Shown here one piece after another: positions 1 to 64,000 of a DNA stretch of 64,000 bases. Origin of the DNA: Escherichia coli (GTDB lineage Bacteria > Pseudomonadota > Gammaproteobacteria > Enterobacterales > Enterobacteriaceae). The notes beneath the pieces were generated by a model. That model did no database searches, was not told the origin of the DNA, and saw only the letters and a list, made by a program, of their open reading frames with translations. How positions within the stretch are numbered: position 1 is the stretch's first letter; each line of letters starts with the position of its first letter. The DNA lies in NCBI RefSeq assembly GCF_003334355.1, contig NZ_QOWP01000012.1; one strand, written 5' to 3'. A program made the translations under genes and the position numbers.

Positions 1-1
1 A

Positions 2-1968: not shown

Positions 1969-1977
1969 TTGCCACCT

Positions 1978-2070
1978 CCAGGCCTGATAAGACGCGACAA
2001 GCGTCGCATCAGGCATTTGCTCCAGACGCCAGATGCGGCGTGAACGCCTTATCTGGCCTACGGTTCGGGC
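1978..2070. repeat. REP/BIME palindromic repeat cluster
   Basis: GCCTGATAAGACGCG...CGTCGCATCAGGC and GCCAGATGCGGCGTGAACGCCTTATCTGGCCTAC units typical of E. coli REP elements, between convergent moeB and fsaA. Confidence 0.7.
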
Positions 2071-2146
2071 ACAGATTTCCAAGCGCGGCAGGCATCGGTG
2101 CACTCCGCCACGTCATCAGCAATTTATGAGGATGCAGAACGTCCGG

Positions 2147-2809
2147 TTAAATCGACGTTCTGCCAAACGCTCCCTGCCAGTCCTGCTCAAACTTCGCCAC
2201 AGCGGCTTCCACCGCCGGATAGCTAATCATCTGTTGTGCCACATCCAGTGGCAGAGTAATTGATTCACATCCTGCCAGTAAGCAGTCCAGCGCCTGACGC
2301 GGGGTTTTGAAACTCGCTGCCAGCACTTTCGCCTGCGGCGCATGCATTTTCAATAACTGGTGTAAGTCGGTCACAGTCTGAATGCCGCTACCGCCCTGAG
2401 CATCAATACGATTAACGTAAGGCGCAACATATTCCGCACCTGCCAGCGCCGACAGCAGCCCTTGTGCTGCGCCATATACCGCGGTTCCCAGCGTTGGAAT
2501 CCCTTCCGCTTTTAACATCTTAATAGCTGCCAGCCCCTCGGCGGTCACCGGAACTTTCACCACGATATCCGCAATAATAGAACGCAATTTACGTGCGTCA
2601 TTCACCATCCCTTCAGCAGTGGTAGCCATTACCTGGGCAAACAGACGCCCCTGACCGCCCATCGCTTCATGAAGTTGCGGAAGCACAACATCCAGCGGTT
2701 TTTTACCCGCGGCGATAATGCTTGGGTTAGTGGTCACACCCGCCAGCGGAAAAATACGTGACAGCGCCTTCACCGCAACAACGTCTGAAGTATCCAGATA
2801 CAGTTCCAT
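2147..2809 (-). CDS. fsaA: Fructose-6-phosphate aldolase 1
   Basis: Translation from internal Met ([10 protein letters not shown]...) gives 220 aa, recognised as FsaA; the ORF-track N-terminal extension is not used. Confidence 0.9.
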
Positions 2810-2912
2810 AACCATCCTCAAAATGTACTTTTTGTCTGAATGTAGACTATCACGGGAAAACTCTCTGAACAGTTGACGCACATCAATCTAACTTTCATTC
2901 GAAAGTATTTTA

Positions 2913-3839
2913 ATGCTTGAACGAAATAGAGAGGCAACTATGATTTTCAATATTCAGCGCTACTCGACCCATGATGGCCCCGGTATCCGCACGGTCGTAT
3001 TTCTTAAAGGCTGTTCGCTGGGCTGCCGCTGGTGTCAGAACCCGGAAAGCCGCGCCCGCACGCAGGATCTGCTGTATGACGCACGACTGTGTCTGGAAGG
3101 CTGCGAGCTGTGCGCTAAGGCCGCGCCGGAAGTGATTGAGCGCGCGCTGAATGGTTTGCTTATTCATCGGGAAAAGTTAACCCCGGAGCATCTGACGGCG
3201 TTAACCGACTGCTGTCCGACACAGGCATTAACCGTGTGTGGTGAAGTGAAAAGCGTTGAGGAGATCATGACGACCGTTCTGCGCGATAAACCGTTTTACG
3301 ATCGCAGCGGCGGCGGTTTAACGCTTTCGGGTGGTGAGCCCTTTATGCAGCCGGAAATGGCGATGGCGCTACTGCAAGCCAGCCACGAGGCAGGCATTCA
3401 TACTGCGGTAGAAACCTGTCTGCATGTGCCGTGGAAATATATCGCCCCTTCTCTGCCCTATATCGATCTGTTTCTTGCCGATTTAAAACACGTTGCCGAC
3501 GCGCCGTTTAAACAGTGGACCGACGGTAACGCCGCCAGAGTGCTGGATAACCTGAAAAAACTCGCCGCAGCGGGCAAAAAAATCATTATCCGCGTGCCGC
3601 TGATTCAGGGCTTTAATGCCGACGAAACCTCTGTAAAAGCCATTACCGATTTTGCCGCCGACGAGCTGCACGTTGGCGAAATTCATTTTCTGCCCTACCA
3701 CACGCTGGGCATCAACAAATATCACTTACTTAATCTGCCCTATGACGCCCCGGAAAAACCGCTTGATGCGCCAGAACTGCTCGACTTTGCCCAGCAGTAT
3801 GCCTGCCAGAAAGGGTTAACCGCGACCTTACGAGGATAA
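2913..3839 (+). CDS. ybiY: Glycyl-radical enzyme activating enzyme (radical SAM, PflA-like)
   Basis: 308 aa ORF with radical-SAM CxxxCxxC (CSLGCRWC) and extra Cys clusters; sits immediately upstream of the glycyl radical enzyme gene. The start could instead be the internal Met at about 2940. Confidence 0.85.
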
Positions 3840-3844
3840 CAACC

Positions 3845-6277
3845 ATGACCACACTGAAACTGGACACGCTCAGCGACCGCATTAAAGCGCACAAAAATGC
3901 GCTGGTGCATATTGTGAAACCGCCAGTCTGTACCGAGCGCGCGCAGCACTATACCGAGATGTATCAACAACATCTCGATAAGCCGATCCCGGTACGTCGC
4001 GCGCTGGCACTGGCGCATCACCTGGCGAATCGCACCATCTGGATCAAACACGATGAGTTGATCATTGGCAACCAGGCAAGCGAAGTTCGCGCCGCGCCGA
4101 TCTTCCCGGAATATACTGTCTCGTGGATCGAAAAAGAGATTGATGATCTGGCAGATCGTCCCGGTGCTGGCTTTGCGGTGAGCGAAGAGAACAAACGCGT
4201 TCTGCATGAAGTGTGCCCGTGGTGGCGCGGTCAGACCGTACAGGATCGCTGCTACGGCATGTTTACCGATGAGCAAAAAGGTCTGCTGGCGACCGGAATC
4301 ATTAAAGCGGAAGGCAATATGACCTCCGGCGATGCGCACCTGGCGGTGAATTTCCCGCTGCTGCTGGAAAAAGGGCTTGATGGTCTGCGCGAGAAAGTAG
4401 CGGAACGTCGCTCGCGCATCAACCTGACGGTGCTGGAAGATTTACACGGTGAGCAATTCCTGAAAGCGATTGATATCGTGCTGGTGGCAGTCAGTGAACA
4501 CATTGAACGTTTCGCTGCCCTGGCGCGTGAAATGGCCGCGACCGAAACCCGCGAAAGCCGTCGCGATGAACTGCTGGCGATGGCAGAAAACTGCGATCTT
4601 ATCGCCCACCAGCCGCCGCAGACTTTCTGGCAGGCGCTGCAACTGTGTTACTTCATCCAGTTGATTTTGCAGATCGAATCTAACGGTCACTCAGTATCGT
4701 TTGGTCGTATGGACCAGTATCTCTACCCGTACTATCGCCGCGACGTTGAACTCAACCAGACGCTGGATCGCGAACACGCCATCGAGATGCTGCATAGCTG
4801 CTGGCTGAAACTGCTGGAAGTGAACAAGATCCGCTCCGGCTCACACTCAAAAGCCTCTGCGGGAAGTCCGCTGTATCAGAACGTCACTATTGGCGGGCAA
4901 AATCTGGTTGATGGTCAACCAATGGACGCGGTGAATCCACTCTCTTACGCGATCCTCGAATCCTGCGGTCGCCTGCGTTCCACTCAGCCTAACCTCAGCG
5001 TGCGTTACCATGCAGGAATGAGCAACGATTTCCTCGACGCCTGCGTACAGGTGATCCGTTGCGGCTTCGGGATGCCGGCGTTCAACAACGACGAAATCGT
5101 GATCCCGGAATTTATTAAACTCGGTATTGAACCGCAGGACGCTTATGACTACGCAGCGATTGGTTGTATAGAAACCGCCGTCGGTGGCAAATGGGGCTAT
5201 CGCTGTACCGGCATGAGCTTTATCAACTTCGCCCGCGTGATGCTGGCGGCGCTGGAAGGCGGGCATGATGCCACCAGCGGCAAAGTGTTCCTGCCACAAG
5301 AAAAAGCGTTGTCGGCAGGTAACTTCAACAACTTCGATGAAGTGATGGACGCGTGGGATACGCAAATCCGTTACTACACCCGCAAATCAATCGAAATCGA
5401 ATATGTCGTCGACACCATGCTGGAAGAGAACGTGCACGATATTCTCTGCTCGGCGCTGGTGGATGACTGTATTGAGCGAGCGAAAAGTATCAAGCAAGGC
5501 GGCGCGAAATATGACTGGGTTTCTGGCCTGCAGGTCGGCATTGCCAACCTCGGCAACAGCCTGGCGGCAGTGAAGAAACTGGTGTTTGAACAAGGTGCGA
5601 TTGGTCAGCAACAGCTTGCTGCCGCACTGGCAGATGACTTCGACGGCCTGACTCACGAGCAGCTGCGTCAGCGGCTGATTAACGGTGCGCCGAAGTACGG
5701 CAACGACGATGATACTGTCGATACGCTGCTGGCTCGCGCTTATCAGACCTATATCGACGAACTGAAACAGTACCATAATCCGCGCTACGGTCGTGGTCCG
5801 GTTGGCGGCAACTATTACGCGGGTACGTCATCAATCTCCGCTAACGTACCGTTTGGCGCGCAGACTATGGCAACACCGGACGGGCGTAAAGCCCACACCC
5901 CGCTGGCAGAAGGCGCAAGCCCGGCCTCCGGTACTGACCATCTTGGCCCTACTGCGGTCATTGGCTCAGTGGGTAAACTGCCTACGGCAGCGATTCTCGG
6001 CGGCGTGTTGCTCAACCAGAAACTGAATCCGGCAACGCTGGAGAACGAATCTGACAAGCAGAAACTGATGATCCTGCTGCGTACCTTCTTTGAAGTGCAT
6101 AAAGGCTGGCATATTCAGTACAACATCGTTTCCCGCGAAACGCTGCTGGATGCGAAAAAACATCCCGATCAGTATCGCGATCTGGTAGTGCGTGTCGCGG
6201 GCTATTCCGCGTTCTTCACCGCGCTCTCTCCAGACGCTCAGGACGATATCATCGCCCGTACTGAACATATGCTGTAA
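3845..6277 (+). CDS. ybiW: Glycyl radical enzyme, pyruvate formate-lyase family
   Basis: 810 aa ORF with C-terminal glycyl radical motif RVAGYSAFF; length matches YbiW. Confidence 0.9.
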   Translation: MTTLKLDTLSDRIKAHKNALVHIVKPPVCTERAQHYTEMYQQHLDKPIPVRRALALAHHLANRTIWIKHDELIIGNQASEVRAAPIFPEYTVSWIEKEIDDLADRPGAGFAVSEENKRVLHEVCPWWRGQTVQDRCYGMFTDEQKGLLATGIIKAEGNMTSGDAHLAVNFPLLLEKGLDGLREKVAERRSRINLTVLEDLHGEQFLKAIDIVLVAVSEHIERFAALAREMAATETRESRRDELLAMAENCDLIAHQPPQTFWQALQLCYFIQLILQIESNGHSVSFGRMDQYLYPYYRRDVELNQTLDREHAIEMLHSCWLKLLEVNKIRSGSHSKASAGSPLYQNVTIGGQNLVDGQPMDAVNPLSYAILESCGRLRSTQPNLSVRYHAGMSNDFLDACVQVIRCGFGMPAFNNDEIVIPEFIKLGIEPQDAYDYAAIGCIETAVGGKWGYRCTGMSFINFARVMLAALEGGHDATSGKVFLPQEKALSAGNFNNFDEVMDAWDTQIRYYTRKSIEIEYVVDTMLEENVHDILCSALVDDCIERAKSIKQGGAKYDWVSGLQVGIANLGNSLAAVKKLVFEQGAIGQQQLAAALADDFDGLTHEQLRQRLINGAPKYGNDDDTVDTLLARAYQTYIDELKQYHNPRYGRGPVGGNYYAGTSSISANVPFGAQTMATPDGRKAHTPLAEGASPASGTDHLGPTAVIGSVGKLPTAAILGGVLLNQKLNPATLENESDKQKLMILLRTFFEVHKGWHIQYNIVSRETLLDAKKHPDQYRDLVVRVAGYSAFFTALSPDAQDDIIARTEHML

Positions 6278-6422
6278 TCTCCTCGGCCCGGCGGCGTCGT
6301 CGCCGGGCTAAATCATTCACATCATCAATTTCATCCTTACTTTCATTCGAAATATAATTTGTGCTCTGCGTCACATTGTTATTACACTGTTACGGTTTCA
6401 TTTTCGAGCCAGGAGCACACCT

Positions 6423-7238
6423 ATGAGCGTAAAAGTTATCGTCACAGACATGGACGGTACTTTTCTTAACGACGCCAAAACGTACAACCAACCACGTTTT
6501 ATGGCGCAATATCAGGAACTGAAAAAGCGCGGCATTAAGTTCGTTGTTGCCAGCGGTAATCAGTATTACCAGCTTATTTCATTCTTTCCTGAGCTAAAGG
6601 ATGAGATCTCTTTTGTCGCGGAAAACGGCGCACTGGTTTACGAACATGGCAAGCAGTTGTTCCACGGCGAACTAACCCGACATGAATCGCGGATTGTTAT
6701 TGGCGAGTTGCTAAAAGATAAGCAACTCAATTTTGTCGCCTGCGGTCTGCAAAGTGCATATGTCAGCGAAAATGCCCCCGAAGCATTTGTCGCACTGATG
6801 GCAAAACACTACCATCGCCTGAAACCTGTAAAAGATTATCAGGAGATTGACGACGTACTGTTCAAGTTTTCGCTCAACCTGCCGGATGAACAAATCCCGT
6901 TAGTGATCGACAAACTGCACGTAGCGCTCGATGGCATTATGAAACCCGTTACCAGTGGTTTTGGCTTTATCGACCTGATTATTCCCGGTCTACATAAAGC
7001 AAACGGTATTTCGCGGTTACTGAAACGCTGGGATCTGTCACCGCAAAATGTGGTAGCGATTGGCGACAGCGGTAACGATGCGGAGATGCTGAAAATGGCG
7101 CGTTATTCCTTTGCGATGGGCAATGCTGCGGAAAACATTAAACAAATCGCCCGTTACGCTACCGATGATAATAATCATGAAGGCGCGCTGAATGTGATTC
7201 AGGCGGTGCTGGATAACACATCCCCTTTTAACAGCTGA
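6423..7238 (+). CDS. ybiV: HAD-superfamily (Cof-type) sugar phosphatase
   Basis: 271 aa ORF with N-terminal DMDGT HAD motif. Confidence 0.9.
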
Positions 7239-7389
7239 CCTCTCTACCGGAGCCGTGCGCTCCGGTTTTCCCTTCTTTTTACATCCTGTACATCACATCA
7301 AATCATTAAACTTGCATTAACTTATTTATAACTTATATTGTCACATGCAAATCAGAATGGTTTCGAATGAAAGTTAATGAGAGGTGGTT

Positions 7390-8655
7390 ATGGCTTCTAC
7401 TTTTACCAGCGACACATTGCCTGCCGATCACAAAGCAGCTATCCGTCAGATGAAGCACGCGCTGCGGGCGCAGCTTGGCGACGTCCAGCAGATCTTTAAT
7501 CAGCTAAGCGATGACATTGCCACGCGAGTGGCTGAAATCAACGCACTCAAAGCACAGGGCGATGCCGTCTGGCCGGTGCTGTCTTATGCCGATATCAAAG
7601 CAGGTCATGTTACTGCAGAGCAGCGCGAACAGATTAAACGTCGCGGTTGTGCGGTGATAAAAGGCCATTTCCCCCGCGAACAAGCGCTAGGCTGGGATCA
7701 GTCGATGCTGGACTATCTGGACCGCAACCGCTTTGACGAGGTCTACAAAGGCCCCGGCGATAATTTCTTCGGGACGCTCAGCGCTTCACGTCCCGAGATT
7801 TACCCCATCTACTGGTCGCAGGCGCAAATGCAGGCCCGCCAGAGTGAAGAAATGGCGAATGCGCAGTCGTTTCTCAATCGTCTGTGGACATTTGAAAGTG
7901 ATGGAAAGCAATGGTTTAACCCGGATGTGAGCGTCATCTACCCTGACCGTATCCGCCGCCGTCCGCCCGGAACGACCTCCAAAGGTCTTGGAGCGCATAC
8001 CGACTCCGGGGCACTGGAACGCTGGCTGCTTCCAGCGTATCAGCGCGTTTTCGCCAACGTCTTTAATGGCAATCTGGCGCAATATGATCCCTGGCATGCG
8101 GCACATCGTACGGAAGTTGAAGAGTACACGGTGGACAACACCACCAAATGTTCCGTGTTTCGGACATTCCAGGGCTGGACAGCGCTCTCTGATATGCTGC
8201 CTGGTCAGGGGCTGCTGCACGTCGTGCCCATTCCTGAAGCTATGGCGTACGTACTGTTACGTCCGCTGCTTGATGATGTGCCGGAGGATGAACTGTGCGG
8301 CGTAGCGCCCGGAAGAGTATTGCCGGTATCAGAGCAATGGCATCCACTGTTGATTGAGGCGTTAACCAGCATTCCAAAACTCGAAGCCGGAGACTCCGTC
8401 TGGTGGCACTGCGACGTCATCCATTCCGTTGCCCCCGTTGAAAATCAACAAGGTTGGGGCAACGTGATGTACATTCCTGCGGCACCGATGTGCGAGAAAA
8501 ATCTTGCCTACGCGCACAAGGTGAAGGCCGCACTGGAAAAAGGCGCATCGCCGGGCGACTTCCCGCGCGAGGACTATGAAACAAACTGGGAAGGACGCTT
8601 TACGCTTGCCGACCTCAACATTCACGGTAAGCGAGCGTTGGGCATGGATGTTTGA
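7390..8655 (+). CDS. ybiU: DUF1479-family protein
   Basis: ORF recognised as YbiU; start placed at the second ATG to give the expected 421 aa. Confidence 0.8.
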   Translation: MASTFTSDTLPADHKAAIRQMKHALRAQLGDVQQIFNQLSDDIATRVAEINALKAQGDAVWPVLSYADIKAGHVTAEQREQIKRRGCAVIKGHFPREQALGWDQSMLDYLDRNRFDEVYKGPGDNFFGTLSASRPEIYPIYWSQAQMQARQSEEMANAQSFLNRLWTFESDGKQWFNPDVSVIYPDRIRRRPPGTTSKGLGAHTDSGALERWLLPAYQRVFANVFNGNLAQYDPWHAAHRTEVEEYTVDNTTKCSVFRTFQGWTALSDMLPGQGLLHVVPIPEAMAYVLLRPLLDDVPEDELCGVAPGRVLPVSEQWHPLLIEALTSIPKLEAGDSVWWHCDVIHSVAPVENQQGWGNVMYIPAAPMCEKNLAYAHKVKAALEKGASPGDFPREDYETNWEGRFTLADLNIHGKRALGMDV

Positions 8656-8736
8656 GAATTAATGGAAGTGAATTGATGTGGGATTAAGAAAATCGATTCG
8701 ACGTTACTCAGATTGCTGACAAATGCGCTTTGTTAA

Positions 8737-8835
8737 TGCCTGATGCGGCGTTAACGCCTTATCCGGCCTACAAAGTCCTGCAGATTCAATATATTGCAGG
8801 TACTGCGTAGGCCTGATAAGCGTAGCGCATCAGGC
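8737..8835. repeat. REP/BIME repeat cluster
   Basis: GCCTGATGCGGCGTTAACGCCTTATCCGGCCTAC and TAGGCCTGATAAGCGTAGCGCATCAGGC units between convergent ybiU and ybiT. Confidence 0.7.
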
Positions 8836-8854
8836 TATTTTGCATTTGTCATCA

Positions 8855-8888
8855 GCCGCCGTCACCCCGACAGTATCGGGGTGACGGA
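8855..8888. terminator. Hairpin just downstream of ybiT (perfect 10-bp stem GTCACCCCGA/TCGGGGTGAC)
   Basis: Inverted repeat read directly in the sequence, immediately 3' of the ybiT stop on the minus strand. Confidence 0.5.
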
Positions 8889-20714: not shown

Positions 20715-20830
20715 ACACATTGCCTGATGCGCTACGCTTATCAGGCCTACAGGATATCTGGCAACTTATTAAAATTGCATGAACTTGTAGGACGGATAAG
20801 GCGTTCACGCCGCATCCGGCAAAAAAGCCC
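20715..20830. repeat. REP/BIME repeat cluster
   Basis: GCCTGATGCGCTACGCTTATCAGGCCTAC and GGATAAGGCGTTCACGCCGCATCCGGC units after glnQ. Confidence 0.7.
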
Positions 20831-20970
20831 GCACGTTGTCAGCAACCTGCTTAATATCCCTTCCTCCCTTTCACCCGAAAGGGAGGCACACCAGATTCCT
20901 CTCATTTAAAATCGCCCCTCCTCCAGCATCTATACTTATCTTTTTGCTCTATTTTCTCACTGGAGGAGTC

Positions 20971-30240: not shown

Positions 30241-31203
<963 letters not shown>

Positions 31204-31230: not shown

Positions 31231-33381
31231 TTAACGCCGCCGACGGCGTGGGGATTTCGTTTTTTCTTTCTTTTTAACTATACCTTCAGGGACTTCCGGT
31301 TGCTCTATCGGAAATACCGGTAATGCATCCAGTAGTCGCTTGCCATAATTTTTGGTCAGCAAGCGTTTGTCGTAGATAACCACTTCGCCCCAGCAACCGT
31401 GGCTTCGAATCAGTCGCCCAACCTGCTGAATCAGGTTAAACGAGGCGCTCGGCAGGCTTTGCACCTCAAACGGATAGCGGTTGAGGCTTTTCAGCCATTC
31501 CCCTTCGGTGATCACCACCGGGCTGTCGATGGGCGGAAAAGCGATTTTGTGGATATGCACCTGGCTGAGCAGATCACCTTTCAAATCAAGCCCTTCGGCA
31601 AATGACTGTAAGCCCACCAGCACGCTGCGCTCACCGTTGGCGACGCGTTTGCGGTGCAGTTCAACTAAACGGTAACGCGGCTGATCGCCCTGAACCAGCA
31701 ACATCAGACGTAAATCCGTCACATAGTCGAGAAAGCGCTGCATCGCCCGTCCGCTGGCAAACAGTACCAACATACCGAGATGTTTTTTGCTCTCCACCTG
31801 CTTACGGAAAAAGGCCGCCATTTCGGCAATATGCTGCTCTTCGTTGTCGATGGAAGGCTCAACGCGCATCCGGGGAATAACAATTTTGCCCTGTTCGCAG
31901 TGGTTAAAGGGGGAATCCAGCGCCACAAAACGGTCGCCCGCTTTCTCTTTCAGACCACTCATCTCCTGCAAACGCGAAAAACTGTTCAGCGAACGCAAGG
32001 TTGCGGAGGTGACAATAATGTGCGGAATACTGCGCCACAGCAGCCTTTCCAGCTGATCGCTGACACGTATTCCCACGCAGTGAAACCAGAGGTGTAGCTG
32101 CCCTTCGCGCTCTTCCCGCGTCGCCCATTTGGTCACCGGTGCACCGGAAGATTGCGCCAGCGAAGCCAGCCGCCAGAGTTTGCTTTGCGCCTCGAACATC
32201 CCCAACGCGCGGTTCATCTGCAAAATCAACCGATGCAGACGTACAATGTCATGGCTGCCGGTTTTCTCACTTAAATCGTTAAGAAATAACTCCGCCAGGC
32301 CACGCAGCATCTCGGTGAGTTTTGCCAGCCGCTGGCAGATCTCCAGCACTTCATCTGGCAGTTCGCCCATCGCAAAACGGTGCTCTGCCTCCTGCCCGGC
32401 AGGCATGTAGAGATTGAGAATGTTGTTTAACGAGGCGATAAGCTCATACAACTCTTCACAATGCGCATTCAAACGTTCAGGAATCGCCAGCGGTGGGATG
32501 GTCTTCGGGCGAAACTGCTCCATGCAGGTAGCGACCAGTTTCGTGAACAAGTCCAGCTGTAGCCGATACCACGGCGCGGTGATTTCGGCGCTCATCTCAA
32601 GCGCATCCCGCGCCACATCCGGCAGGTGATGGCCTTCGTCCAGCACCAGCAGTAAATTTTTCGGGTCAGGCAATACCGCTTCGCTTTCCATCGCCGCCAT
32701 CACCAGCGCATGGTTTGCCACCACCACTTCCGCTTCCTGAATCTCCCGACGAGCGACAAAAAACGGGCATTCACGATAGTAGTAACAATTGCGGTTGAGG
32801 CAGCTGGCTTTGTCGGTACTTAAACGACGCCAGAGATCGTCATCTATAGCGATATCAGTATGATCGCGCAGACCATCCCATTTATAAGTATCGAGATCGC
32901 CCTTCAGCTTCGCACAACGTTTTTGCTCTTCCTGATTGTTCGGGGTCAGTTCGTCGTCAAGAAACGCCAGCAGATCCTGTTGCGTGGGTTCAGTACTGGC
33001 GAGCGCCGTCAGATTACGCGGACAAACGTAGCGCCCACGCCCAAAAGCGGCAGTGAATTTAAGATCGGGAATGATCTTTTTCAGCAGCGGTAAATCTTTG
33101 CTGTAAATCTGATCCTGCAATGCCACGTTGGCGGTACTCACCACCAGCGTTTTTTGCTCTTCGCGGGCAATGGCGATGCCGGGAATCAAATAAGAGAGCG
33201 TTTTCCCAACGCCGGTGGGGGCTTCAATCGCCAGATGTCGCCCTTCTTCTCCGGCCAGCGTTTTGGCGACGTCCGCAATCATCTGCCGCTGCGGCGCACG
33301 GGGAATAAAGTCGGGGATCTGTTCCTGAAGCGCCTTATACCAGGCGGCAATTTGCGCTTTAAGCGCGGCGGTTAATGCCAT
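31231..33381 (-). CDS. dinG: ATP-dependent DNA helicase DinG
   Basis: Translation from MALTAALKAQIAAWYKAL gives 716 aa with Walker A APTGVGKT and DEGHH box; the ORF-track 45-aa extension is rejected. Confidence 0.9.
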   Translation of the reverse strand: MALTAALKAQIAAWYKALQEQIPDFIPRAPQRQMIADVAKTLAGEEGRHLAIEAPTGVGKTLSYLIPGIAIAREEQKTLVVSTANVALQDQIYSKDLPLLKKIIPDLKFTAAFGRGRYVCPRNLTALASTEPTQQDLLAFLDDELTPNNQEEQKRCAKLKGDLDTYKWDGLRDHTDIAIDDDLWRRLSTDKASCLNRNCYYYRECPFFVARREIQEAEVVVANHALVMAAMESEAVLPDPKNLLLVLDEGHHLPDVARDALEMSAEITAPWYRLQLDLFTKLVATCMEQFRPKTIPPLAIPERLNAHCEELYELIASLNNILNLYMPAGQEAEHRFAMGELPDEVLEICQRLAKLTEMLRGLAELFLNDLSEKTGSHDIVRLHRLILQMNRALGMFEAQSKLWRLASLAQSSGAPVTKWATREEREGQLHLWFHCVGIRVSDQLERLLWRSIPHIIVTSATLRSLNSFSRLQEMSGLKEKAGDRFVALDSPFNHCEQGKIVIPRMRVEPSIDNEEQHIAEMAAFFRKQVESKKHLGMLVLFASGRAMQRFLDYVTDLRLMLLVQGDQPRYRLVELHRKRVANGERSVLVGLQSFAEGLDLKGDLLSQVHIHKIAFPPIDSPVVITEGEWLKSLNRYPFEVQSLPSASFNLIQQVGRLIRSHGCWGEVVIYDKRLLTKNYGKRLLDALPVFPIEQPEVPEGIVKKKEKTKSPRRRRR

Positions 33382-33395
33382 GAGAAAACCTGAAA

Positions 33396-33415
33396 TACTG
33401 TATAAACAGCCAATA
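33396..33415 (-). promoter_or_regulatory. LexA (SOS) box of dinG
   Basis: Minus-strand sequence TATTGGCTGTTTATACAGTA directly upstream of the dinG ATG; matches the non-canonical dinG SOS box as I recall it. Confidence 0.6.
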
Positions 33416-33500
33416 TTGTGGCATTTTTCGGTTTTCAGGGGTAATGGTTTTTCTGTTTCTGGAAAGCGGCTCGCAATAACCACCAACATAATGCGGTTTA

Positions 33501-33983
33501 ATGCCCGTTCGAGCACAAAGGATCCAACACGTCATGCAAGACACCATCATAAATTTCTACAGCACCAGCGATGACTACGGTGATTTTTCTAACTTTGCCG
33601 CCTGGCCCATCAAGGTTGACGGGAAAACCTGGCCCACCTCAGAACACTATTTTCAGGCACAAAAATTCCTTGATGAAAAATACCGCGAAGAGATCCGTCG
33701 GGTTTCTTCCCCTATGGTCGCCGCACGCATGGGGCGCGATCGTTCTAAGCCTCTGCGTAAAAACTGGGAGTCGGTCAAAGAACAGGTGATGCGAAAAGCA
33801 CTTCGCGCTAAATTCGAACAGCATGCAGAACTGCGTGCGCTCTTGCTGGCAACCGCGCCCGCAAAACTGGTTGAGCATACGGAAAACGATGCTTACTGGG
33901 GAGACGGTGGTCATGGTAAGGGCAAGAATCGACTGGGCTACCTTTTAATGGAGTTGCGCGAACAATTGGCTATAGAGAAGTAA
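33501..33983 (+). CDS. ybiA: N-glycosidase YbiA (DUF1768 / riboflavin-intermediate hydrolase family)
   Basis: 160 aa ORF recognised as YbiA. Confidence 0.85.
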   Translation: MPVRAQRIQHVMQDTIINFYSTSDDYGDFSNFAAWPIKVDGKTWPTSEHYFQAQKFLDEKYREEIRRVSSPMVAARMGRDRSKPLRKNWESVKEQVMRKALRAKFEQHAELRALLLATAPAKLVEHTENDAYWGDGGHGKGKNRLGYLLMELREQLAIEK

Positions 33984-34062
33984 CGTCTCGGTGGCTTATG
34001 GGCGGTAAAACAGATAAATTTTTTCCCGTGTTCTCAAATTGCTGACAAGTGCTTGTTGTGAA

Positions 34063-34165
<103 letters not shown>

Positions 34166-34186
34166 TTTGCGTTTGTTCATCAGCCT

Positions 34187-34210
34187 GATGCCGGGCATAG
34201 CCCGGCATAA
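34187..34210. terminator. Palindromic hairpin just downstream of rhlE
   Basis: ATGCCGGGCATAGCCCGGCAT perfect palindrome immediately 3' of the rhlE stop on the minus strand. Confidence 0.5.
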
Positions 34211-34214
34211 AAGA

Positions 34215-35579
34215 TTACTGCGCAGCGGCAGGTTTACGCGGACGGCGGCGACGTTGTTGTTCGCCTGCCGGTTTGGCATCGCCGAGGCGGCGAGACGGTT
34301 TTTCTGCAGGTTTCGCGCTTGCAGATTTTGCGCCACCTTCCCCACGGCGTGGTTGCTGTTGACCGCGACCACCACCTTGCCCACGACCGCCGCCGCCACG
34401 TTGCTGGCGACCGTTCTGGATCGGTTCGGCTTTGATTGACGGGTCCGGCTCATAGCCCGGAATCGCAATGCGCGGGATCTCTTTTTTCAGCAGTTTTTCG
34501 ATATCACGCAGCAGTTTGTGTTCATCAACACACACCAGCGACAACGCTTCACCGGTAGCAGCCGCACGACCGGTACGCCCGATACGGTGGACATAATCTT
34601 CAGGTACGTTTGGCAGTTCATAGTTGACGACGTGCGGCAGCTCTTCAATATCCAGGCCGCGCGCAGCGATGTCAGTTGCCACCAGTACACGAATATCGCC
34701 CGATTTAAAATCAGCCAGCGCACGAGTACGCGCACCTTGCGATTTATTGCCGTGGATCGCCGCACTACGGATGCCATCTTTATTGAGCTGTTCAGCCAGA
34801 TGGTTAGCGCCGTGTTTGGTACGGGTAAACACCAGCACCTGCTGCCAGTTCCCTTTCCCAATCATGTGCGACAGCAATTCGCGTTTGCGTTTCTTATCGA
34901 CAAAGTGAACGTGCTGGGTCACCTGATCAGACGCGGTATTGCGGCGTGCCACTTCGATTTCCAGCGGGTTGTGCAACAGTTTTTCCGCCAGGGCTTTAAT
35001 ATCGTCAGAGAAGGTCGCGGAGAATAACAGGTTCTGGCGCTTCGCAGGTAGTTTTGTTAACACGCGACGGATATCGTGGATAAAGCCCATGTCGAGCATG
35101 CGGTCAGCTTCATCGAGGACGAGGATTTCAACCTGATCCAGCTTCACTGCATTCTGATGTTCCAGGTCCAGCAAACGTCCCGGGGTTGCCACCAGCACAT
35201 CAACGCCGCCACGCAGTTTCATCATCTGCGGGTTAATACTCACACCACCAAACACCACCAGCGAACGAATGTTCAGGTATTTGCTGTAATCACGGACGTT
35301 TTCGCCAATCTGCGCCGCCAGTTCACGGGTCGGGGTAAGAATGAGCGCACGTACCGGACGACGCCCTTTGGCGTGCGGCTGGCGAGTGATCAGGTGTTGC
35401 AACAGCGGCAGCGTAAAGCCCGCTGTTTTGCCGGTGCCGGTCTGGGCGCTAGCCATCAGGTCGCGGCCTTCCAGCACCGCAGGGATCGCCTGCTGCTGAA
35501 TAGGGGTGGGTTCACGGTAACCCTGCTCGGCAACGGCGCGCAGGATATCAGGGCTTAAACCCAAAGAATCGAAAGACAT
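34215..35579 (-). CDS. rhlE: ATP-dependent DEAD-box RNA helicase
   Basis: 454 aa ORF with Q-motif, Walker [13 protein letters not shown] box (VLDEADRM) and Arg/Gly-rich C-terminal tail. Confidence 0.9.
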
Positions 35580-48417: not shown

Positions 48418-49407
48418 TTAGCCGCCAATGTACGATAAGTTTTGCGTAATACCGGTGTTGTTTTGATGCAGGAAATGGGTCTGTTTCTTCTCCCGCAGCG
48501 CCGCTGAAATACGCGCTTCCAGCGCCTGTTGCTGGGTATCGTCTTCCAGCAGATCGCGCAGGTTAACGCCGCCTTCACCAAACAGGCAGAGATGGAGTTT
48601 ACCAATAGAGGAAACGCGCAGGCGGTTGCAAGTGGCGCAGAAGTCTTTTTCATACGGCATGATAAGGCCAATCTCTCCGGCGTAATCTGGATGGCAAAAG
48701 ACTTGCGCGGGACCGTCGCTGCGTTGACGTAATTGGTGGATCCAGCCGCGACGCAGTAGCTCGTCACGCAGAACCTGACCAGAGATGTGATGCTTACGGA
48801 AGAGCTCGCTGCCCTCGCCCGTTTCCATCAGTTCGATGAAACGCAGCTGGATAGGGCGATGCTGGATCCAGTTCAGAAAGGTGTCGAGCTGGTGATGATT
48901 AACATCACGCATCAGCACGGTATTGACTTTGACCTTCTCAAAACCGGCCTCAAATGCAGCATCAATCCCTGCCATGACCTGGTTGAATTTATCCTGCCCG
49001 GTAATAGCGTGAAACTGGCGGGCGTCCAGACTGTCGACACTGACGTTAATGCCAGTAAGTCCCGCATCGCGCCAGTTCGCCACATCGCGTTCCAGACGGT
49101 AACCATTGGTTGTGACCGCAATCTGGCGGATAGCGTCGTTTTCCCGCACAGCGGCGATGATATCGGTAAAGTCGCGGCGTAAAGACGGCTCTCCTCCTGT
49201 CAGGCGCACTTTTTCGGTGCCCAGACTGGCGAAGGCGCGCGTAACCCGGCGAATTTCATCGACGGTAAGAAAGCCTTTATTGGTGACGCCGCTCGGTTTG
49301 TAGCCATCCGGCAGGCAGTAGGTGCAACGAAAGTTACACACATCGGTAATCGACAGGCGCAAGTAGTAAAACTTACGCGCAAATGCATCAGTCAGTTGTG
49401 AAGCCAT
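48418..49407 (-). CDS. moaA: GTP 3',8-cyclase MoaA (radical SAM)
   Basis: Translation from [31 protein letters not shown] gives 329 aa with CxxxCxxC; the ORF-track 27-aa extension lies in the leader and is rejected. Confidence 0.9.
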
Positions 49408-49560
49408 GTACACCTTTCCAGATACGGGAGGCGAAGTCATTTCTTCCTTCGCCCTGGTGGCAATCTTTACGAGCATTGTCACGGCCAAAGCACCGTATCA
49501 GTTGACCCAGGTGCAGAGGCTAGAGTGTTTAGTGGTTATGCCGATACTAGCGTGTAAATG
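49408..49560 (-). ncRNA. moaA 5' leader, candidate Moco riboswitch (cis-regulatory RNA)
   Basis: Structured, conserved-looking leader directly upstream of moaA; assigned from established knowledge that the E. coli moaA leader carries the Moco RNA motif. Boundaries are approximate. Confidence 0.5.
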
Positions 49561-50712: not shown

Positions 50713-50744
50713 CGGAAATCCGAAGGAAAATTCCGGCTTCCTAT

Positions 50745-50875
50745 TGAAGACAAAGTGCGCGTTGTTTATGCCGGATGCGGCGTGAACGCCTTATCCGGCC
50801 TACAAACCGCGCAAATTCAATATATTGCGGAGAAAATGTAGGCCTGATAAGCGTAGCGCATCAGGCTGTTTTCCG
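50745..50875. repeat. REP/BIME repeat cluster
   Basis: GCCGGATGCGGCGTGAACGCCTTATCCGGCCTAC and TAGGCCTGATAAGCGTAGCGCATCAGGC units between ybhK and uvrB. Confidence 0.7.
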
Positions 50876-50903
50876 TTTGTCATCAGTCTTCTTCGCTATC
50901 CTG

Positions 50904-52925
50904 TTACGATGCCGCGATAAACAGCTCACGCAGCTGATGCAACTGGTCACGAATTTGCGCCGCTTCTTCGAACTCCAGATTCTGCGCGTGTTGCATCATC
51001 AACCCTTCCAGCTCATGGATTTTCTGCTGCAACGCTTTAGGCGACATATCCATCGGCACATTATCCGGCTCAACAATCGGGCGCGATTTTCCTCTGCCCT
51101 TCGCTTTGGTTTTGGCAATGTTCTGCCCCAGCGCCAGGATATCGACCACTTTCTTGTTCAAGCCTTGCGGCGTAATTCCGTGTTCCTCGTTGTACTTCTG
51201 CTGTTTCTCACGGCGACGTTCGGTTTCGCCAATCGCTTTCGCCATTGATGGGGTGATCTTATCGCCGTAGAGAATCGCTTTACCGTTAACGTTACGTGCC
51301 GCACGACCAATGGTCTGGATCAACGAACGTTCGGAACGCAGGAAGCCTTCTTTGTCAGCGTCGAGGATCGCCACCAGCGACACTTCCGGCATATCCAGAC
51401 CTTCGCGCAGTAAGTTGATCCCTACCAGCACGTCGAACTCACCCAGACGCAAGTCGCGGATAATCTCCATACGTTCGACGGTGTCGATATCTGAGTGAAG
51501 ATAACGCACGCGCTCGCCATGTTCTTCGAGATATTCGGTAAGATCTTCCGCCATCCGCTTGGTCAGTGTGGTGACCAGTACGCGTTCGTTAATTGCCGCT
51601 CGCTGACGAATCTCCGAAAGAAGATCATCAACCTGTGTCGCCACCGGCCGCACTTCGATAATCGGGTCAAGCAATCCGGTTGGACGCACCACCTGATCCA
51701 CCACATCGCCGCCGGATTTTTCCAGCTCGTAATTACCCGGCGTCGCCGAAACATAGATGGTTTGCGGCGCTAATGCTTCGAACTCTTCAAACTTAAGCGG
51801 ACGGTTATCCAGCGCTGATGGCAGGCGGAAGCCGTACTCCACCAGTGTCTCTTTACGCGCCCGGTCACCGCGATACATGCCGCCAATTTGTGGAATGGTG
51901 ACGTGAGATTCATCGACCACCAGCAGCCCATCAGCAGGGAGGTAATCAAACAGCGTCGGCGGTGGCTCACCCGGTCCACGACCGGAGAGGAAGCGCGAGT
52001 AGTTTTCAATCCCCGAACAGTAGCCCAGCTCGTTCATCATCTCCAGATCAAACTGGGTACGCTGGGTCAGCCGCTGCTCTTCCAGCAGTTTGTTGTTTTC
52101 CAACAGCACTTTGCGTCTGGCGGCCAGCTCTTCTTTGATCTCCTCCATCGCCTGTACGATGCGCTCGCGCGGTGTGACGTAGTGCGTTTTCGGGTAGATG
52201 GTAAAACGTGGAATAGTGGAAACAATCTGCCCGGTCAGCGGGTCAAATAACGACAATCGTTCCACTTCCTCGTCAAACAGTTCCACGCGAAGTGCAATGT
52301 CATCCGATTCTGCCGGGAAGATATCTATCACCTCGCCACGAACGCGGAAAGTACCACGCTGGAATGCTTGATCATTACGAGCGTATTGCAGCTCCGCCAG
52401 TCGGCGCAGAATCGCGCGCTGATCGATAATCATACCGACCGTGAGATGGAGCATCATCTTGAGATATAAATCAGGATCGCCCAGACCATAAATCGCGGAA
52501 ACAGACGCCACCACAACCACATCACGCCGCTCCAGCATCGCTTTGGTGGCGGATAAACGCATCTGCTCAATATGTTCGTTAACCGAGGCATCTTTCTCAA
52601 TGAAAGTGTCGGAACTCGGTACATAGGCTTCCGGCTGATAGTAGTCGTAGTAGGAGACGAAATACTCCACCGCGTTTTCCGGGAAGAACTCTTTCATTTC
52701 GCCATACAGCTGGGCCGCCAGCGTTTTGTTGGGCGCAAGTACCATGGTTGGGCGCTGAAGGTCAGCAATGACATTGGCAATGGTGAAGGTTTTCCCTGAG
52801 CCAGTCACGCCAAGTAACGTCTGGTGCGCCAGGCCATCTTCCAGCCCCTCTTCGAGACGTCGAATCGCCTCTGGCTGATCGCCAGAAGGTTTAAAAGCGG
52901 AATTCAGTTTGAACGGTTTACTCAT
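50904..52925 (-). CDS. uvrB: Excinuclease ABC subunit B
   Basis: 673 aa ORF with Walker A GVTGSGKT and helicase motifs. Confidence 0.9.
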
Positions 52926-52999: not shown

Positions 53000-53019
53000 T
53001 ACTGGATAAAAAAACAGTT
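53000..53019 (-). promoter_or_regulatory. LexA (SOS) box of uvrB
   Basis: Minus-strand AACTGTTTTTTTATCCAGTA upstream of uvrB, a CTG-N10-CAG LexA-type site. Confidence 0.6.
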
Positions 53020-59105: not shown

Positions 59106-59125
59106 AAGTTAGTATAAAAAAGCAG
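59106..59125. other. Phage lambda attachment site attB (core), unoccupied
   Basis: CAAGTTAGTATAAAAAAGCAG is the reverse complement of CTGCTTTTTTATACTAACTTG, containing the 15-bp lambda att core GCTTTTTTATACTAA, in the ybhB-ybhC intergenic region with no phage DNA adjacent. Confidence 0.7.
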
Positions 59126-59169
59126 GCTTCAACGGATTCATTTTTCTATTTCATAGCCCGGAGCAACCT

Positions 59170-60453
59170 GTGAACACATTTTCAGTTTCCCGTCTGGCGC
59201 TGGCATTGGCTTTTGGCGTGACGCTGACCGCCTGTAGCTCAACCCCGCCCGATCAACGTCCTTCTGATCAAACCGCGCCTGGTACCTCTTCTCGCCCGAT
59301 TCTGTCGGCAAAAGAAGCGCAGAATTTCGATGCTCAACACTATTTTGCATCCCTGACACCAGGTGCTGCAGCGTGGAATCCTTCCCCGATTACCCTGCCT
59401 GCGCAACCTGAATTTGTTGTCGGCCCGGCGGGCACTCAAGGTGTAACGCATACCACGATTCAGGCGGCGGTAGATGCGGCAATTATCAAGCGTACCAACA
59501 AGCGCCAATATATTGCCGTGATGCCTGGTGAGTATCAGGGAACGGTATATGTCCCTGCCGCTCCGGGTGGAATTACTCTGTACGGTACAGGTGAAAAACC
59601 GATTGATGTGAAGATTGGGCTTTCCCTTGATGGTGGCATGAGCCCTGCCGACTGGCGTCACGACGTCAACCCGCGCGGCAAATATATGCCAGGTAAACCA
59701 GCGTGGTATATGTACGATAGCTGCCAGAGCAAACGCAGCGACAGTATCGGTGTTCTCTGCTCTGCGGTCTTCTGGTCACAAAACAATGGCCTGCAACTGC
59801 AAAATCTGACCATCGAAAACACGCTGGGCGATATCGTAGATGCAGGTAACCATCCGGCGGTGGCACTGCGTACTGATGGTGACCAGGTACAGATTAACAA
59901 CGTTAACATTCTCGGTCGTCAGAACACCTTCTTTGTCACCAACAGCGGTGTGCAGAACCGTCTGGAAACGAATCGTCAGCCGCGTACGCTGGTGACCAAC
60001 AGCTACATTGAAGGGGATGTGGATATCGTTTCTGGTCGCGGCGCAGTGGTGTTCGATAACACCGAATTCCGCGTGGTGAACTCACGTACTCAGCAAGAAG
60101 CGTATGTGTTTGCACCGGCTACGCTGTCCAACATTTACTACGGTTTCCTCGCCGTAAACAGCCGTTTCAATGCTTTCGGTGATGGTGTGGCGCAACTGGG
60201 CCGCTCGCTGGATGTTGATGCCAATACCAACGGTCAGGTGGTGATCCGTGATAGCGCCATCAACGAAGGTTTTAACACGGCTAAACCGTGGGCCGATGCG
60301 GTGATCTCTAATCGTCCGTTTGCGGGTAATACCGGCAGCGTAGATGATAACGACGAAATACAGCGCAATCTGAATGACACTAACTACAACCGCATGTGGG
60401 AATACAATAACCGCGGCGTGGGTAGTAAAGTGGTTGCAGAGGCGAAGAAGTAA
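59170..60453 (+). CDS. ybhC: Outer membrane lipoprotein, pectinesterase-like
   Basis: 427 aa ORF with lipoprotein signal peptide and lipobox (LTAC). Confidence 0.85.
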   Translation: MNTFSVSRLALALAFGVTLTACSSTPPDQRPSDQTAPGTSSRPILSAKEAQNFDAQHYFASLTPGAAAWNPSPITLPAQPEFVVGPAGTQGVTHTTIQAAVDAAIIKRTNKRQYIAVMPGEYQGTVYVPAAPGGITLYGTGEKPIDVKIGLSLDGGMSPADWRHDVNPRGKYMPGKPAWYMYDSCQSKRSDSIGVLCSAVFWSQNNGLQLQNLTIENTLGDIVDAGNHPAVALRTDGDQVQINNVNILGRQNTFFVTNSGVQNRLETNRQPRTLVTNSYIEGDVDIVSGRGAVVFDNTEFRVVNSRTQQEAYVFAPATLSNIYYGFLAVNSRFNAFGDGVAQLGRSLDVDANTNGQVVIRDSAINEGFNTAKPWADAVISNRPFAGNTGSVDDNDEIQRNLNDTNYNRMWEYNNRGVGSKVVAEAKK

Positions 60454-60461
60454 GAGCAATT

Positions 60462-60686
<225 letters not shown>

Positions 60687-60690
<4 letters not shown>

Positions 60691-62948
60691 ATCTGACGGT
60701 TTTTATTGAAGTTAATCAAACTACCCGCCTTGATAATCTCGCGCTCTTCAGCAGTCAGACTTTCCATATAGAGCGTAATTTCCGTTACCGGCGCATCTTC
60801 ATGGATCACATAACCTTTAAACGTCGTACCCGGATTATCCAGCGCCGCTTTAATGCCAGGGATGTAAATGTAATCCCCCACTTCAAAGGTTGGCACTTCC
60901 GCCATCTGCAGCGGTAACATCCCCCAGTTGATGACGTTAGAACGGTAGCGTTTAGTCGCGTACTCTTCGGCAATATTCGCCAGACCGCCAATCACACGCT
61001 GGCAGCTCGCCGCCTGTTCACGCGCAGAACCATCGCCTGGTTTCACCGCATATACCATGCTGCCAATTTCAGTTTGCAGCGGATCAATATGCTCCTGACC
61101 AGCAATCTGCTTAATGCGCGCAAACACCTCTGTCAGCTCGCTGACATTCCCCGCCAGACGCTGATTTTCCAGCTCAGCAGTCGCTTTACTTCTGCCAACA
61201 TAACCGGGATCGCGGCGTGACAGGGTAAACTCCGCCGGACCAATCGGATTTGAACGATAAGAAGAGGTTTCACCGGAAGGAATCAGTTCGTCGGTGGTGG
61301 TCACTTCGTCGAGGATCTTCGAGCACACTTTCAGGACGATATTGTCAGTCAGCGCACCCAATTCCGGCCAGTCTTTAATGTTCGGTCCGTAAATCAGCGG
61401 TTGCTGAGTTGCCCCTTTCACAAAGCCCTGATAAACACGGTTTTTATACGGCGTTACATCGAAGGCGTACTCCGGCACGTTGTCCCAGCAATCAAGTTCG
61501 CTGGCAGAGGTTAAATAGCCACCGTTTGCCGCAGTCGCAGCGATAGAACGAGCGTCCATCAACGCCACCGCTGACATCTGCCCATTAGCTGGCTTAGAGC
61601 CTTCGCGGTTCGGGAAGTTGCGCGTGGTGTGGCGAATACTTAATCCGTTGTTGATTGGCGTATCGCCCGCGTCAAAGCATGGGCCGCAGAACGCGGTTCT
61701 GATGATTGCGCCTGCGCCAATCAAATCTGCTACCACACCTTTTTTGGCGAGATCCATAAACACCGGCTGTGATGACGGGTAAACTGCCAGCGAGAAGGTG
61801 TCATTGCCACAGGATTGACCGCGCAGTGCATTCGCCGCCGCGATGACGTTTTCGTAGTTACCGCCAGAACAGCCCGCGATAATCCCCTGCTGCACTTTCA
61901 GGCGACCATTTTCCACTTTATCCAGCAGCGAGAGTTTGGCTTTACCGTGCGCCACGCGTTCGGACTCAATTTCAATCTCACGCAGAATGTCGGTCAGGTT
62001 CTGGTTCAGTGTGTCGATTTCATACACGTTGCTCGGGTGGAACGGCAGCGCAATCATTGGTTTGATGGCGCTTAAATCAACGCTGATGCAGCCATCGTAG
62101 TACGCCATCGGTTGAGGGTTAAGCTGGCAGTAATCCTGGCCGCGACCGTGCAGCGCCAGCCAGTTATGGACTTCTTCATCGGTTTGCCAGACAGAACTTA
62201 AACAGGTCGTTTCAGTGGTCATAACGTCAACGCTGTTACGGAAATCGGTAGAGAGCGCAGCAACACCGGGACCTACGAATTCCATCACTTTGTTTTTGAC
62301 GTAGCCGTTTTTGAACACGGCACCGATGATAGCCAGCGCCACATCCTGCGGCCCCACATACGGCGCTGGTTTTCCGGTCAGATGCACCGCAACAACTCCC
62401 GGATAGTCGATATCCCAGGTGTCATTAAGCAGCTGTTTTACCAACTCACCGCCGCCCTCACCGACTGCCATTGTCCCTAATGCACCGTAACGGGTGTGGC
62501 TGTCTGACCCGAGGATCATTTTGCCGCCGCCTGCCATCATCTCACGCATATATTGATGGATGACCGCAATATGCGGAGGCACAAAAATACCGCCATAACG
62601 CTGAGCTGCCGATAAACCAAAAACATGGTCATCACCGTTAATGGTGCCGCCGACGGCGCAGAGTGAGTTATGGCAGTTGGTCAGCACATACGGCAGCGGG
62701 AAACGTTCCATTCCGGACGCTTTAGCGGTCTGTACAATACCAACAAAGGTAATATCGTGAGAGGCTAATGAATCAAACTTAATTTTAAGTTTATCCATAT
62801 TTCCGGACGTATTATGAGAAGAGAGAATAGACCAGGCAATAGTGCCTTTTTTGGCTTCTTCTTTTTTAATTTCGCCGGTGAAATGTTCTTCGGCAATTAT
62901 TTCGTTATTACTGGCGAGAAACACGCCTTTTTCAGATAACTTGATCAT
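60687..62948 (-). CDS. ybhJ: Aconitase-family protein
   Basis: Translation from [11 protein letters not shown] gives 753 aa with aconitase-like Cys-containing regions. Confidence 0.8.
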
Positions 62949-63002
62949 CAAATGCTCCAGATATCTGCGCACCGTGAAGTGCGCAGAAAGATAATAAATG
63001 GA

Positions 63003-63136
63003 TATACTCTAAATAATTCGAGTTGCAGGAAGGCGACAAGTGAGTGAATCCCCAGGAGCTTACATAAGTAAGTGACTGGGGTGAGCGAACGCAAACGCAG
63101 CACATGCAACTTGAAGTATGACGAGTATATTTACAG
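63003..63136. repeat. ERIC (enterobacterial repetitive intergenic consensus / IRU) element
   Basis: GTGAATCCCCAGGAGCTTACATAAGTAAGTGACTGGGGTGAGCG core matches the ERIC consensus as I recall it; lies between ybhJ and ybhI. Confidence 0.8.
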
Positions 63137-63842
63137 CATGTTCCAGCCGATCAGCATATTCCACCACCACACGCCGAGGGTGATATGCACCAGGAAGGTT
63201 AATATCGTCAGTACCGCACCGACCAACCACCAGGATTTAATATCGTTATAACCCACGCCAAAGATGACCGGACCTGCCGCGCCGCCATAGTGAGTAACCA
63301 TGCCGCCATAGGAGTTGGAGAACAACAGTGCCAGCGCGGTTAACATTAACGGTGCGCCGGAGACGTTCGCCAGCATGGCAAATACCGGTAACATAGCAAC
63401 GATATAGGCACTACCGGAAGCGAAGAAATAACGCACGATAATGCTGAGGAAAATAATAACGAAGAAAGCAACGTTACCGTGACCATCAAATGCCAGGTTA
63501 TTTTTAAAGACTTCAGCTAACCATTCGAAGAATTTAACTTTCGATAATAAGGAGCTTAAGCCGATAATACCGCCGTACCAGATTAAGGTATTCCAGCCGC
63601 CTTTATTTTTAACCACGTCTTCCCAGGTAACGATACCCAGCAGCAGCATGGTTGCCATAACAACGATTGCCACGGTGGATTCATCAACCCCCAGAGACTT
63701 ACTGAAAATCCAGCCCAGCAGCGCCAGCACAAAGACACCGAGCAGCATTTTTTCGCGGATTTTCATCGGTCCTAGTTCGGCAAGGCCCGCTTTAGCGATG
63801 GTTTTGTTATCCACCTTCTTAATTTCTGGTGGATACATGGTG
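63131..63842 (-). pseudogene. ybhI: 3' fragment (about 236 codons) of DASS-family anion transporter gene ybhI, interrupted by an insertion sequence
   Basis: Translation is the C-terminal half of a DASS (CitT-like) transporter; expected full length about 477 aa; upstream of 63842 the sequence switches to IS10-type DNA. Confidence 0.75.
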
Positions 63843-64000
63843 CTGAGAGATCCCCTCATAATTTCCCCAAAACGTAACCATGTGTGAATAGATTTTGAGT
63901 AAGCAGGGTTGCAGCCACGAGTGAGTCTTCCCTTGTTATTGTGTAGCCAGAATGCCGCAAAACTTCCATGCCTAAGCGAACTGTTGAGAGTACGTTTCGA
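63843..64000 (-). mobile_element. IS10-family (IS4 superfamily) insertion sequence, inside end and 3' part; continues beyond the window
   Basis: Terminus CTGAGAGATCCCCTCATAATTTCCCC matches the IS10 inside end as I recall it; adjacent minus-strand frame encodes the IS10-type transposase C-terminus. Confidence 0.8.
63856..64000 (-). CDS. IS10-type transposase, C-terminal 47 codons (5' part outside the window)
   Basis: Minus-strand translation RNVLSTVRLGMEVLRHSGYTITREDSLVAATLLTQNLFTHGYVLGKL-stop, near-identical to the IS10 transposase C-terminus as I recall it. Confidence 0.75.
   Translation of the reverse strand, partial: RNVLSTVRLGMEVLRHSGYTITREDSLVAATLLTQNLFTHGYVLGKL

Follow-up and report, generated by a model that had tools for sequence, protein, structure and literature searches.

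The gene dinG of Escherichia coli is a standard LexA regulon member, and its operator is the classical case of an SOS box in which the CTG trimer is broken. PMC8265657 prints the exact 20-bp sequence as the dinG SOS box of Lewis and Mount (1992), asymmetric and characterised by experiment, and credits these authors with demonstrating specific LexA binding to it. The sequence is listed among the SOS boxes upstream of UV-induced genes (PMC3009722), and it was used as a native operator in experiments that describe it as the one native operator deviating at a trimer position (PMC5999292). Its published heterology index (HI) is 8.6 (PMC11228462 Table 1, values from Courcelle 2001), and the accepted SOS sites in that table extend to an HI of 13, with polB and yoaA.

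Expression studies show how dinG responds to DNA damage. AZT induces it 3.2-fold, with a small, 1.7-fold dependence on lexA (LexA cleavage) (PMC11228462); ciprofloxacin raises both transcript and protein (PMC11002266); a tiling-array study reports a UV-induced transcript 'ybiB, dinG' (PMC3009722 Table 7); and Culyba et al. 2018 place dinG among the 'early' promoters, those with a low ED50 (PMC5999292). The label 'weak' for the dinG operator is supported by the 3.2-fold response to AZT, the 1.7-fold lexA dependence and the membership in the early, low-ED50 class. The single box of Salmonella dinG, 14 bp from the ATG, has an HI of 10.08, and nalidixate induces the gene 10.6-fold (PMC8072944). 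The literature assigns the neighbouring E. coli gene ybiB to the LexA-regulated dinG operon; it is co-transcribed with dinG and so is under the same operator.

We analysed a 64,000-nucleotide stretch of E. coli DNA (the window), in which the operator and the genes around it are arranged as follows.

33396 to 33415, minus strand: LexA (SOS) operator of dinG, TATTGGCTGTTTATACAGTA (unique exact match, identity to the published dinG SOS box, HI and conservation)
33411 to 33413, minus strand: non-canonical left trimer TTG, box positions 3-5, where the consensus has CTG (direct reading)
33398 to 33400, minus strand: canonical right trimer CAG, box positions 16-18 (direct reading; unvarying in 80 of 80 species)
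31231 to 33381, minus strand: dinG, ATP-dependent DNA helicase DinG, 716 aa (RefSeq annotation of a genome identical over window positions 33000-34000)
30241 to 31203, minus strand: ybiB, TrpD2-family DNA-binding protein, 27 bp downstream of dinG (annotation)
33501 to 33983, plus strand: ybiA, divergent from dinG across a 119-bp intergenic gap (annotation)

By exact match search, TATTGGCTGTTTATACAGTA occurs once in the window, and it was contained in none of the dinucleotide shuffles of the window. The minus strand around it reads ...aaaaaTGcCACAATATTGGCTGTTTATACAGTAtttcAGGttttctcATGgcattaacc..., with 14 bp between the box and the dinG ATG at 33381..33379. The original prediction had proposed a LexA-like 20-mer between 33390 and 33420, a few bases upstream of dinG, with a left half-site off the CTG consensus and a canonical right half. 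A single such 20-mer is indeed present there, with TTG at 33413..33411 and CAG at 33400..33398; it lies upstream of the start codon as claimed, at a distance of 14 bp and not of a few bases. The further suggestion that this is the known weak dinG operator agrees with the appearance of the same 20-mer in PMC8265657 and PMC3009722, and the weakness fits the induction data. The 20-mer is thus almost certainly the operator already known to place the E. coli dinG-ybiB operon under SOS control, a real element but ordinary textbook material.

Compared with the consensus TACTG(TA)5CAGTA, the right half ATACAGTA is canonical and the left half reads TATTGG, with TTG replacing CTG. The box therefore has the form TTG-N10-CAG; it lacks one of the two trimers of the pattern CTG-N10-CAG and is missing from the 25 matches to that pattern found in the window. 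Since it is still classed as an SOS box in the literature (PMC8265657), the strict pattern is typical of such boxes rather than defining. This also makes the dinG box usable as a positive control, namely a weak, asymmetric operator that an analysis can pick up though the CTG-N10-CAG pattern misses it.

The identity of the downstream gene is secure. The ATG at 33381 opens a frame that translates, read by eye, as MALTAALKAQIAAWYKALQEQ...; the mechanically called open reading frame begins at an upstream GTG (33516), and 33381 is the annotated start. The first 127 codons, contained in a 1,001-bp query, have 100% DNA identity with many RefSeq genomes in which the gene is annotated dinG, and the full coding sequence is 99.9% identical to that of ATCC 8739 at the same coordinates, as expected of a DinG orthologue. 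The Pfam domains DEAD_2 and Helicase_C_2 are recorded on DinG homologues. On the other side of the intergenic region, rhlE lies beyond ybiA according to the annotation. The window as a whole is E. coli chromosome, with 99.9% identity to ATCC 8739 from 8888 to 59123. Its first 7.2 kb are just 96-97% identical to that strain, and 7217-8887 and 59124-64000 (beyond ybhB, in the lambda attachment region) have no counterpart in the corresponding stretch of ATCC 8739; segments 1-8887 and 59124-64000 are probably recombinant or strain-specific.

Several structured elements lie elsewhere in the window. A repeat of about 120-150 bp is present in four intergenic gaps (34038-34183, 8703-8857, 20721-20840 and 50743-50886), the copies sharing 81-86% identity. 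The copy between ybiA and rhlE matches the Rfam family ES036/CssrF above the gathering score at 34099-34141 (plus strand) and has a partial match to naRNA4, which we take to derive from REP325-type repeats, at 34044-34095. The Rfam scan of 33000-34400 returned no match at the dinG box. A molybdenum-cofactor riboswitch is predicted upstream of moaA, at about 49395-49540 on the minus strand, from the RefSeq annotation of the near-identical ATCC 8739.

To score the box we used an HI matrix of the Berg-von Hippel/Lewis type, for which 17-18 E. coli boxes were taken from Table 4 of PMC3009722. The dinG box has an HI of 9.29 with the 18-site matrix that includes it, 12.82 when it is left out, and 11.44 when it is left out and the matrix is symmetrised. 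The original prediction had named the HI as the check for this 20-mer, and the recomputed 9.3 (11.4-12.8 without dinG) and the published 8.6 are both within the range of experimentally functional operators, which reaches 13. Under all three matrices the box is the second-ranking LexA-like site in the 64 kb. The top site is the box AACTGTTTTTTTATCCAGTA at 53000-53019, identical to the published uvrB SOS box and located 74 bp upstream of the uvrB ATG (coding sequence 50904-52925, minus strand), so the window holds two SOS operators. Two sites scoring at least as well as the dinG box are observed, against 0.02-0.1 expected per 64-kb window from 200 dinucleotide shuffles.

This expectation corresponds to a few chance sites of such quality per genome. 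Moreover, with the strictest, symmetrised matrix, the dinG box (HI 11.4) is about 1 unit better than a near-palindrome, TACTGGATGCATTACCGGTA, at 31315-31334 (HI 12.4), so the score alone is not compelling. What is decisive for the dinG box is its placement at the putative promoter together with its conservation and the literature, and not a genome-wide score alone. The near-palindrome falls within the 3'-terminal part of the dinG gene, some 110 bp ahead of ybiB, and ranks third in the window with an HI of 10.8-12.4; it has CTG on one side and CGG for CAG on the other. We considered it as a ybiB-proximal operator and put it aside, as its HI of 10.8-12.4 is at chance level and it is within coding sequence; it is probably a chance match.

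Within E. coli the operator is nearly fixed. Of 5,422 complete E. coli genomes, at least 5,399 match a 47-bp query spanning 33379-33425 with no mismatch across the whole box, and the stretch is also mismatch-free in an MG1655-derived genome. The match is broken within the box in six E. coli genomes. An ISL3-family element (annotated ISKox3 or ISEc53) is found within the box spacer in E. coli AHB21 (L088, 2180-3510) and TUM13064 (L002, about 3410-4700), at an insertion point equivalent to window position 33409/33410 and with an 8-bp target duplication, CTGTTTAT. The insertion cuts dinG off from both the left half-site and the -10 element, and dinG may have escaped LexA control in these strains. 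Just past the inserted element, TUM13064 carries a ClbS/DfsB-family gene.

Directly upstream of the dinG promoter, from about 33476-33495 onward, is a hot spot of variation. In approximately 2,000 of the 5,422 genomes, similarity to the window is lost from about 33495 and ybiA is a truncated pseudogene annotated 'NADAR family'; in the O157:H7 strain F8798, the break is at about 33476 and the type III effector gene espX2 replaces ybiA. This ybiA polymorphism ends just short of the dinG promoter, and the box is unchanged where ybiA is truncated or replaced by espX2, which indicates that the box travels with dinG.

The sequence adjoining the box suggests where transcription of dinG could begin, through the following features.

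33415 to 33423, minus strand: putative extended -10 element TGcCACAAT, with TG at 33423-33422 and the hexamer at 33420-33415 (sequence criterion and conservation)
33407 to 33408, minus strand: predicted transcription start, placed at the usual 7-8 nt downstream of the -10 hexamer
33389 to 33391, minus strand: weak Shine-Dalgarno sequence AGG, 7 nt before the dinG ATG (direct reading)

TGcCACAAT has what defines an extended -10 element in sequence, that is, a TG, one base, and a hexamer with -11A and -7T, and we consider it the putative dinG promoter. Its final T is position 1 of the box, so that the two elements adjoin. The TG, -11A and -7T are unvarying in all 65 full-length rows tabulated, the same reading is obtained for 80 of 80 Enterobacteriaceae species, and these bases are retained in Cedecea, Buttiauxella, Shimwellia, Erwiniaceae and Pectobacterium too. 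No conserved -35 element is seen in the species alignments upstream of dinG; an extended -10 element can make up for an absent -35 (PMC10911233). A simple scan of 33300-33600 for -35/-10 pairs and terminators found nothing, and the supplements of Kim 2012 have no entry or matching coordinates for a dinG transcription start. If TGcCACAAT is the promoter, a start near 33408/33407 would follow and the box would span about -7 to +13. Further downstream, the CAGG motif at the dinG Shine-Dalgarno sequence is kept in most Enterobacteriaceae.

Conservation of the region across the family was assessed in 80 Enterobacteriaceae species, gathered via the DinG N-terminus. A 36-bp block running from the TG into the leader is conserved among them. 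Almost no variation is seen from the TG, which lies 7 bp ahead of the box, to a point about 13 bp beyond the box, while the columns further upstream have no majority base and are saturated with change. Within the block, box positions 4-19 are almost invariant and thus stand out from a diverged background. The most common form of the box is TAGTGGCTGTTTATACAGTA, present in 58 of the 80 species, with 12 more having the same sequence with a final G. The form TATTGG... is restricted to three species, E. coli, E. albertii and Escherichia sp.; E. whittamii has TAATGG..., and there are six singletons besides. At box position 3, therefore, 76 species have G, the three Escherichia have T, E. whittamii has A, and none of the 80 has the consensus C. 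Cedecea, Buttiauxella and Shimwellia, which were fetched separately, have TAGTGG... as well.

Beyond the family, the dinG operator takes other forms. In the Erwiniaceae, sampled as Pantoea ananatis, Erwinia amylovora and a Rosenbergiella-like contig, the box TACTGTGTAAAAATACAG(G/C)C is canonical, with an HI of 6.8-8.1. MAFFT and pairwise alignments put this box 14 bp further upstream than the one in E. coli. Its CAG, the right trimer, occupies the columns in which E. coli has TTG, and the TGn-hexamer is aligned throughout. A lineage related to the Erwiniaceae, represented by two contigs (L092 and L100), reads TGgCAAAAT(A/G)CTGGCTAAAAACACAG; its box, in register with that of E. coli, is canonical (CTG...CAG) and has an HI of 10.4. 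In Pectobacterium carotovorum, TGgGACAAT is kept and the dinG upstream region contains no LexA box, the best HI being 21.7. The same three aligned columns thus read CAG, CTG, GTG or TTG across the Enterobacterales groups. Because LexA boxes are found at dinG in both the Erwiniaceae and the L092/L100 lineage, LexA control of dinG is older than the operator now seen in E. coli, and the defective trimer appears to be a derived feature of the Enterobacteriaceae that was then stably kept.

These comparisons raise the tentative idea, drawn from sequence alignments, that the dinG operator turned over around a fixed extended -10 element and that the base G in the defective trimer has been kept by selection. 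The Erwiniaceae box is centred on the -10 element and the L092/L100 box begins at its end; the Enterobacteriaceae box has the same downstream register as the latter, with its left trimer defective. Pairwise alignment to Erwinia favours a 14-bp shift, and alignment to the L092/L100 lineage favours box-to-box homology. As G is present in 76 of 80 species despite saturated neutral divergence around it, the base would be under selection. The reason for this may be selection for a deliberately weak, early-firing operator, or it may be that box position 3 is also promoter position -5. At that promoter position, according to Haugen 2006 as summarised in PMC10911233, open complexes live 10 to 50 times longer with G than with C, the least favourable base. 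On the operator side, placing C at box position 3 lowers the symmetrised HI from 11.4 to 7.2 by computation. The stronger notion that C is forbidden at box position 3 because of its role as promoter -5 is weakened by the L092/L100 lineage, which pairs the canonical C with the same TGn-hexamer-box architecture. Selection for a weak, early operator accounts for the position-3 data equally well as a promoter -5 constraint. These comparative details are a minor, incremental extension of a known system, and the picture they give may be of interest for research on how weak operators persist and binding sites shift position.

It is extremely improbable that the 20-mer merely resembles the LexA consensus by chance and has no repressor function, its conservation coming from the promoter, start region and leader alone. 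What speaks for such a coincidence is that the left trimer, one of two that hardly ever vary, is broken, and substitutions in these trimers are said to severely abrogate LexA binding (PMC5999292); that the HI obtained without dinG (11.4-12.8) is near those of the best coding-sequence matches in the window; that a rate of 0.02-0.1 chance sites per 64 kb adds up to a few in a whole genome; and that the conserved block also holds promoter and leader elements. However, PMC8265657 describes this exact sequence as experimentally characterised for its interaction with LexA, dinG is damage-inducible and lexA-dependent in several published data sets, and LexA boxes exist in the dinG promoter region of the Erwiniaceae (HI 6.8-8.1) and of the L092/L100 lineage (HI 10.4). 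Those two groups also bear on the proposal that the invariant spacer GGCTGTTTATACAG, which holds CTG-N6-CAG, is the site of another DNA-binding factor, with LexA being secondary: their spacers are entirely different and their LexA boxes are kept. This proposal has in its favour that the ten spacer positions are almost invariant in the 80 species though LexA tolerates varied AT-rich spacers, but the spacer overlaps the predicted transcription start and the initially transcribed region, which would be constrained otherwise, and no such factor is known or was suggested by a literature search. We consider it highly improbable.

The box could also be a shared operator that represses the divergent ybiA besides dinG, in the way that the uvrA-ssb box serves two genes. 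It sits in the 119 bp between dinG and ybiA, 86-105 bp ahead of the ATG annotated for ybiA, and ybiA has been called 'inside a LexA-controlled operon' (PMC11125620). Yet ybiA is on the strand opposite to dinG and so outside the dinG operon, the simple scan of 33300-33600 yielded no ybiA promoter over the box, and the tiling array reported 'ybiB, dinG' as UV-induced and did not report ybiA (PMC3009722). Furthermore, the box is unchanged in the roughly 2,000 genomes where ybiA is truncated and where espX2 replaces it in O157:H7, so a shared role is unlikely. The specific placement of ybiA and rhlE, which occupy 33501-35579, inside a LexA-controlled dinG operon (PMC11125620) is ruled out by gene orientation, ybiA being divergent from dinG and rhlE convergent with ybiA.

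The preferred reading, a LexA operator acting on dinG-ybiB, suggests a simple mechanism that joins the sequence, position, score and conservation described here to the LexA binding, damage induction and early timing taken from the literature. A LexA dimer would occupy the 20-bp imperfect palindrome with one monomer on the canonical right half, ACAGTA, and the other on the degenerate left half, TATTGG, which has TTG for CTG. The operator starts at the last base of TGcCACAAT and covers the predicted transcription start, and because of this overlap with the end of the -10 element and the start, we infer that bound LexA would exclude RNA polymerase or block open-complex formation. Upon DNA damage, RecA filaments stimulate LexA self-cleavage; the repressor would then leave, and dinG-ybiB would be transcribed. 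We propose that LexA binding is weak because one half-site is defective; weak binding would in turn give leaky repression, a small induction ratio and early opening at low doses of damage.

Set beside the described systems, the locus is indistinguishable from the E. coli K-12 dinG SOS box of Lewis and Mount (1992), agreeing with it in the 20-mer, the flanks and the 14 bp to the ATG, with no difference. It resembles the canonical LexA boxes of recA, sulA, umuDC and uvrB in its 20-bp length, dyad layout, AT-rich spacer, right half ACAGTA and predicted position on the promoter, and differs from them in the left trimer TTG, a spacer that starts with GGC and an HI at the weak end, comparable with those of polB, dinB and ftsK. 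With the dinG operators of other Enterobacterales it shares the gene and the extended -10 element, in which TGn is followed by a hexamer with AAT or TAT at its end, and from the dinG boxes of other Enterobacteriaceae, which read TAGTGG..., it differs at position 3, where they have G in place of T.
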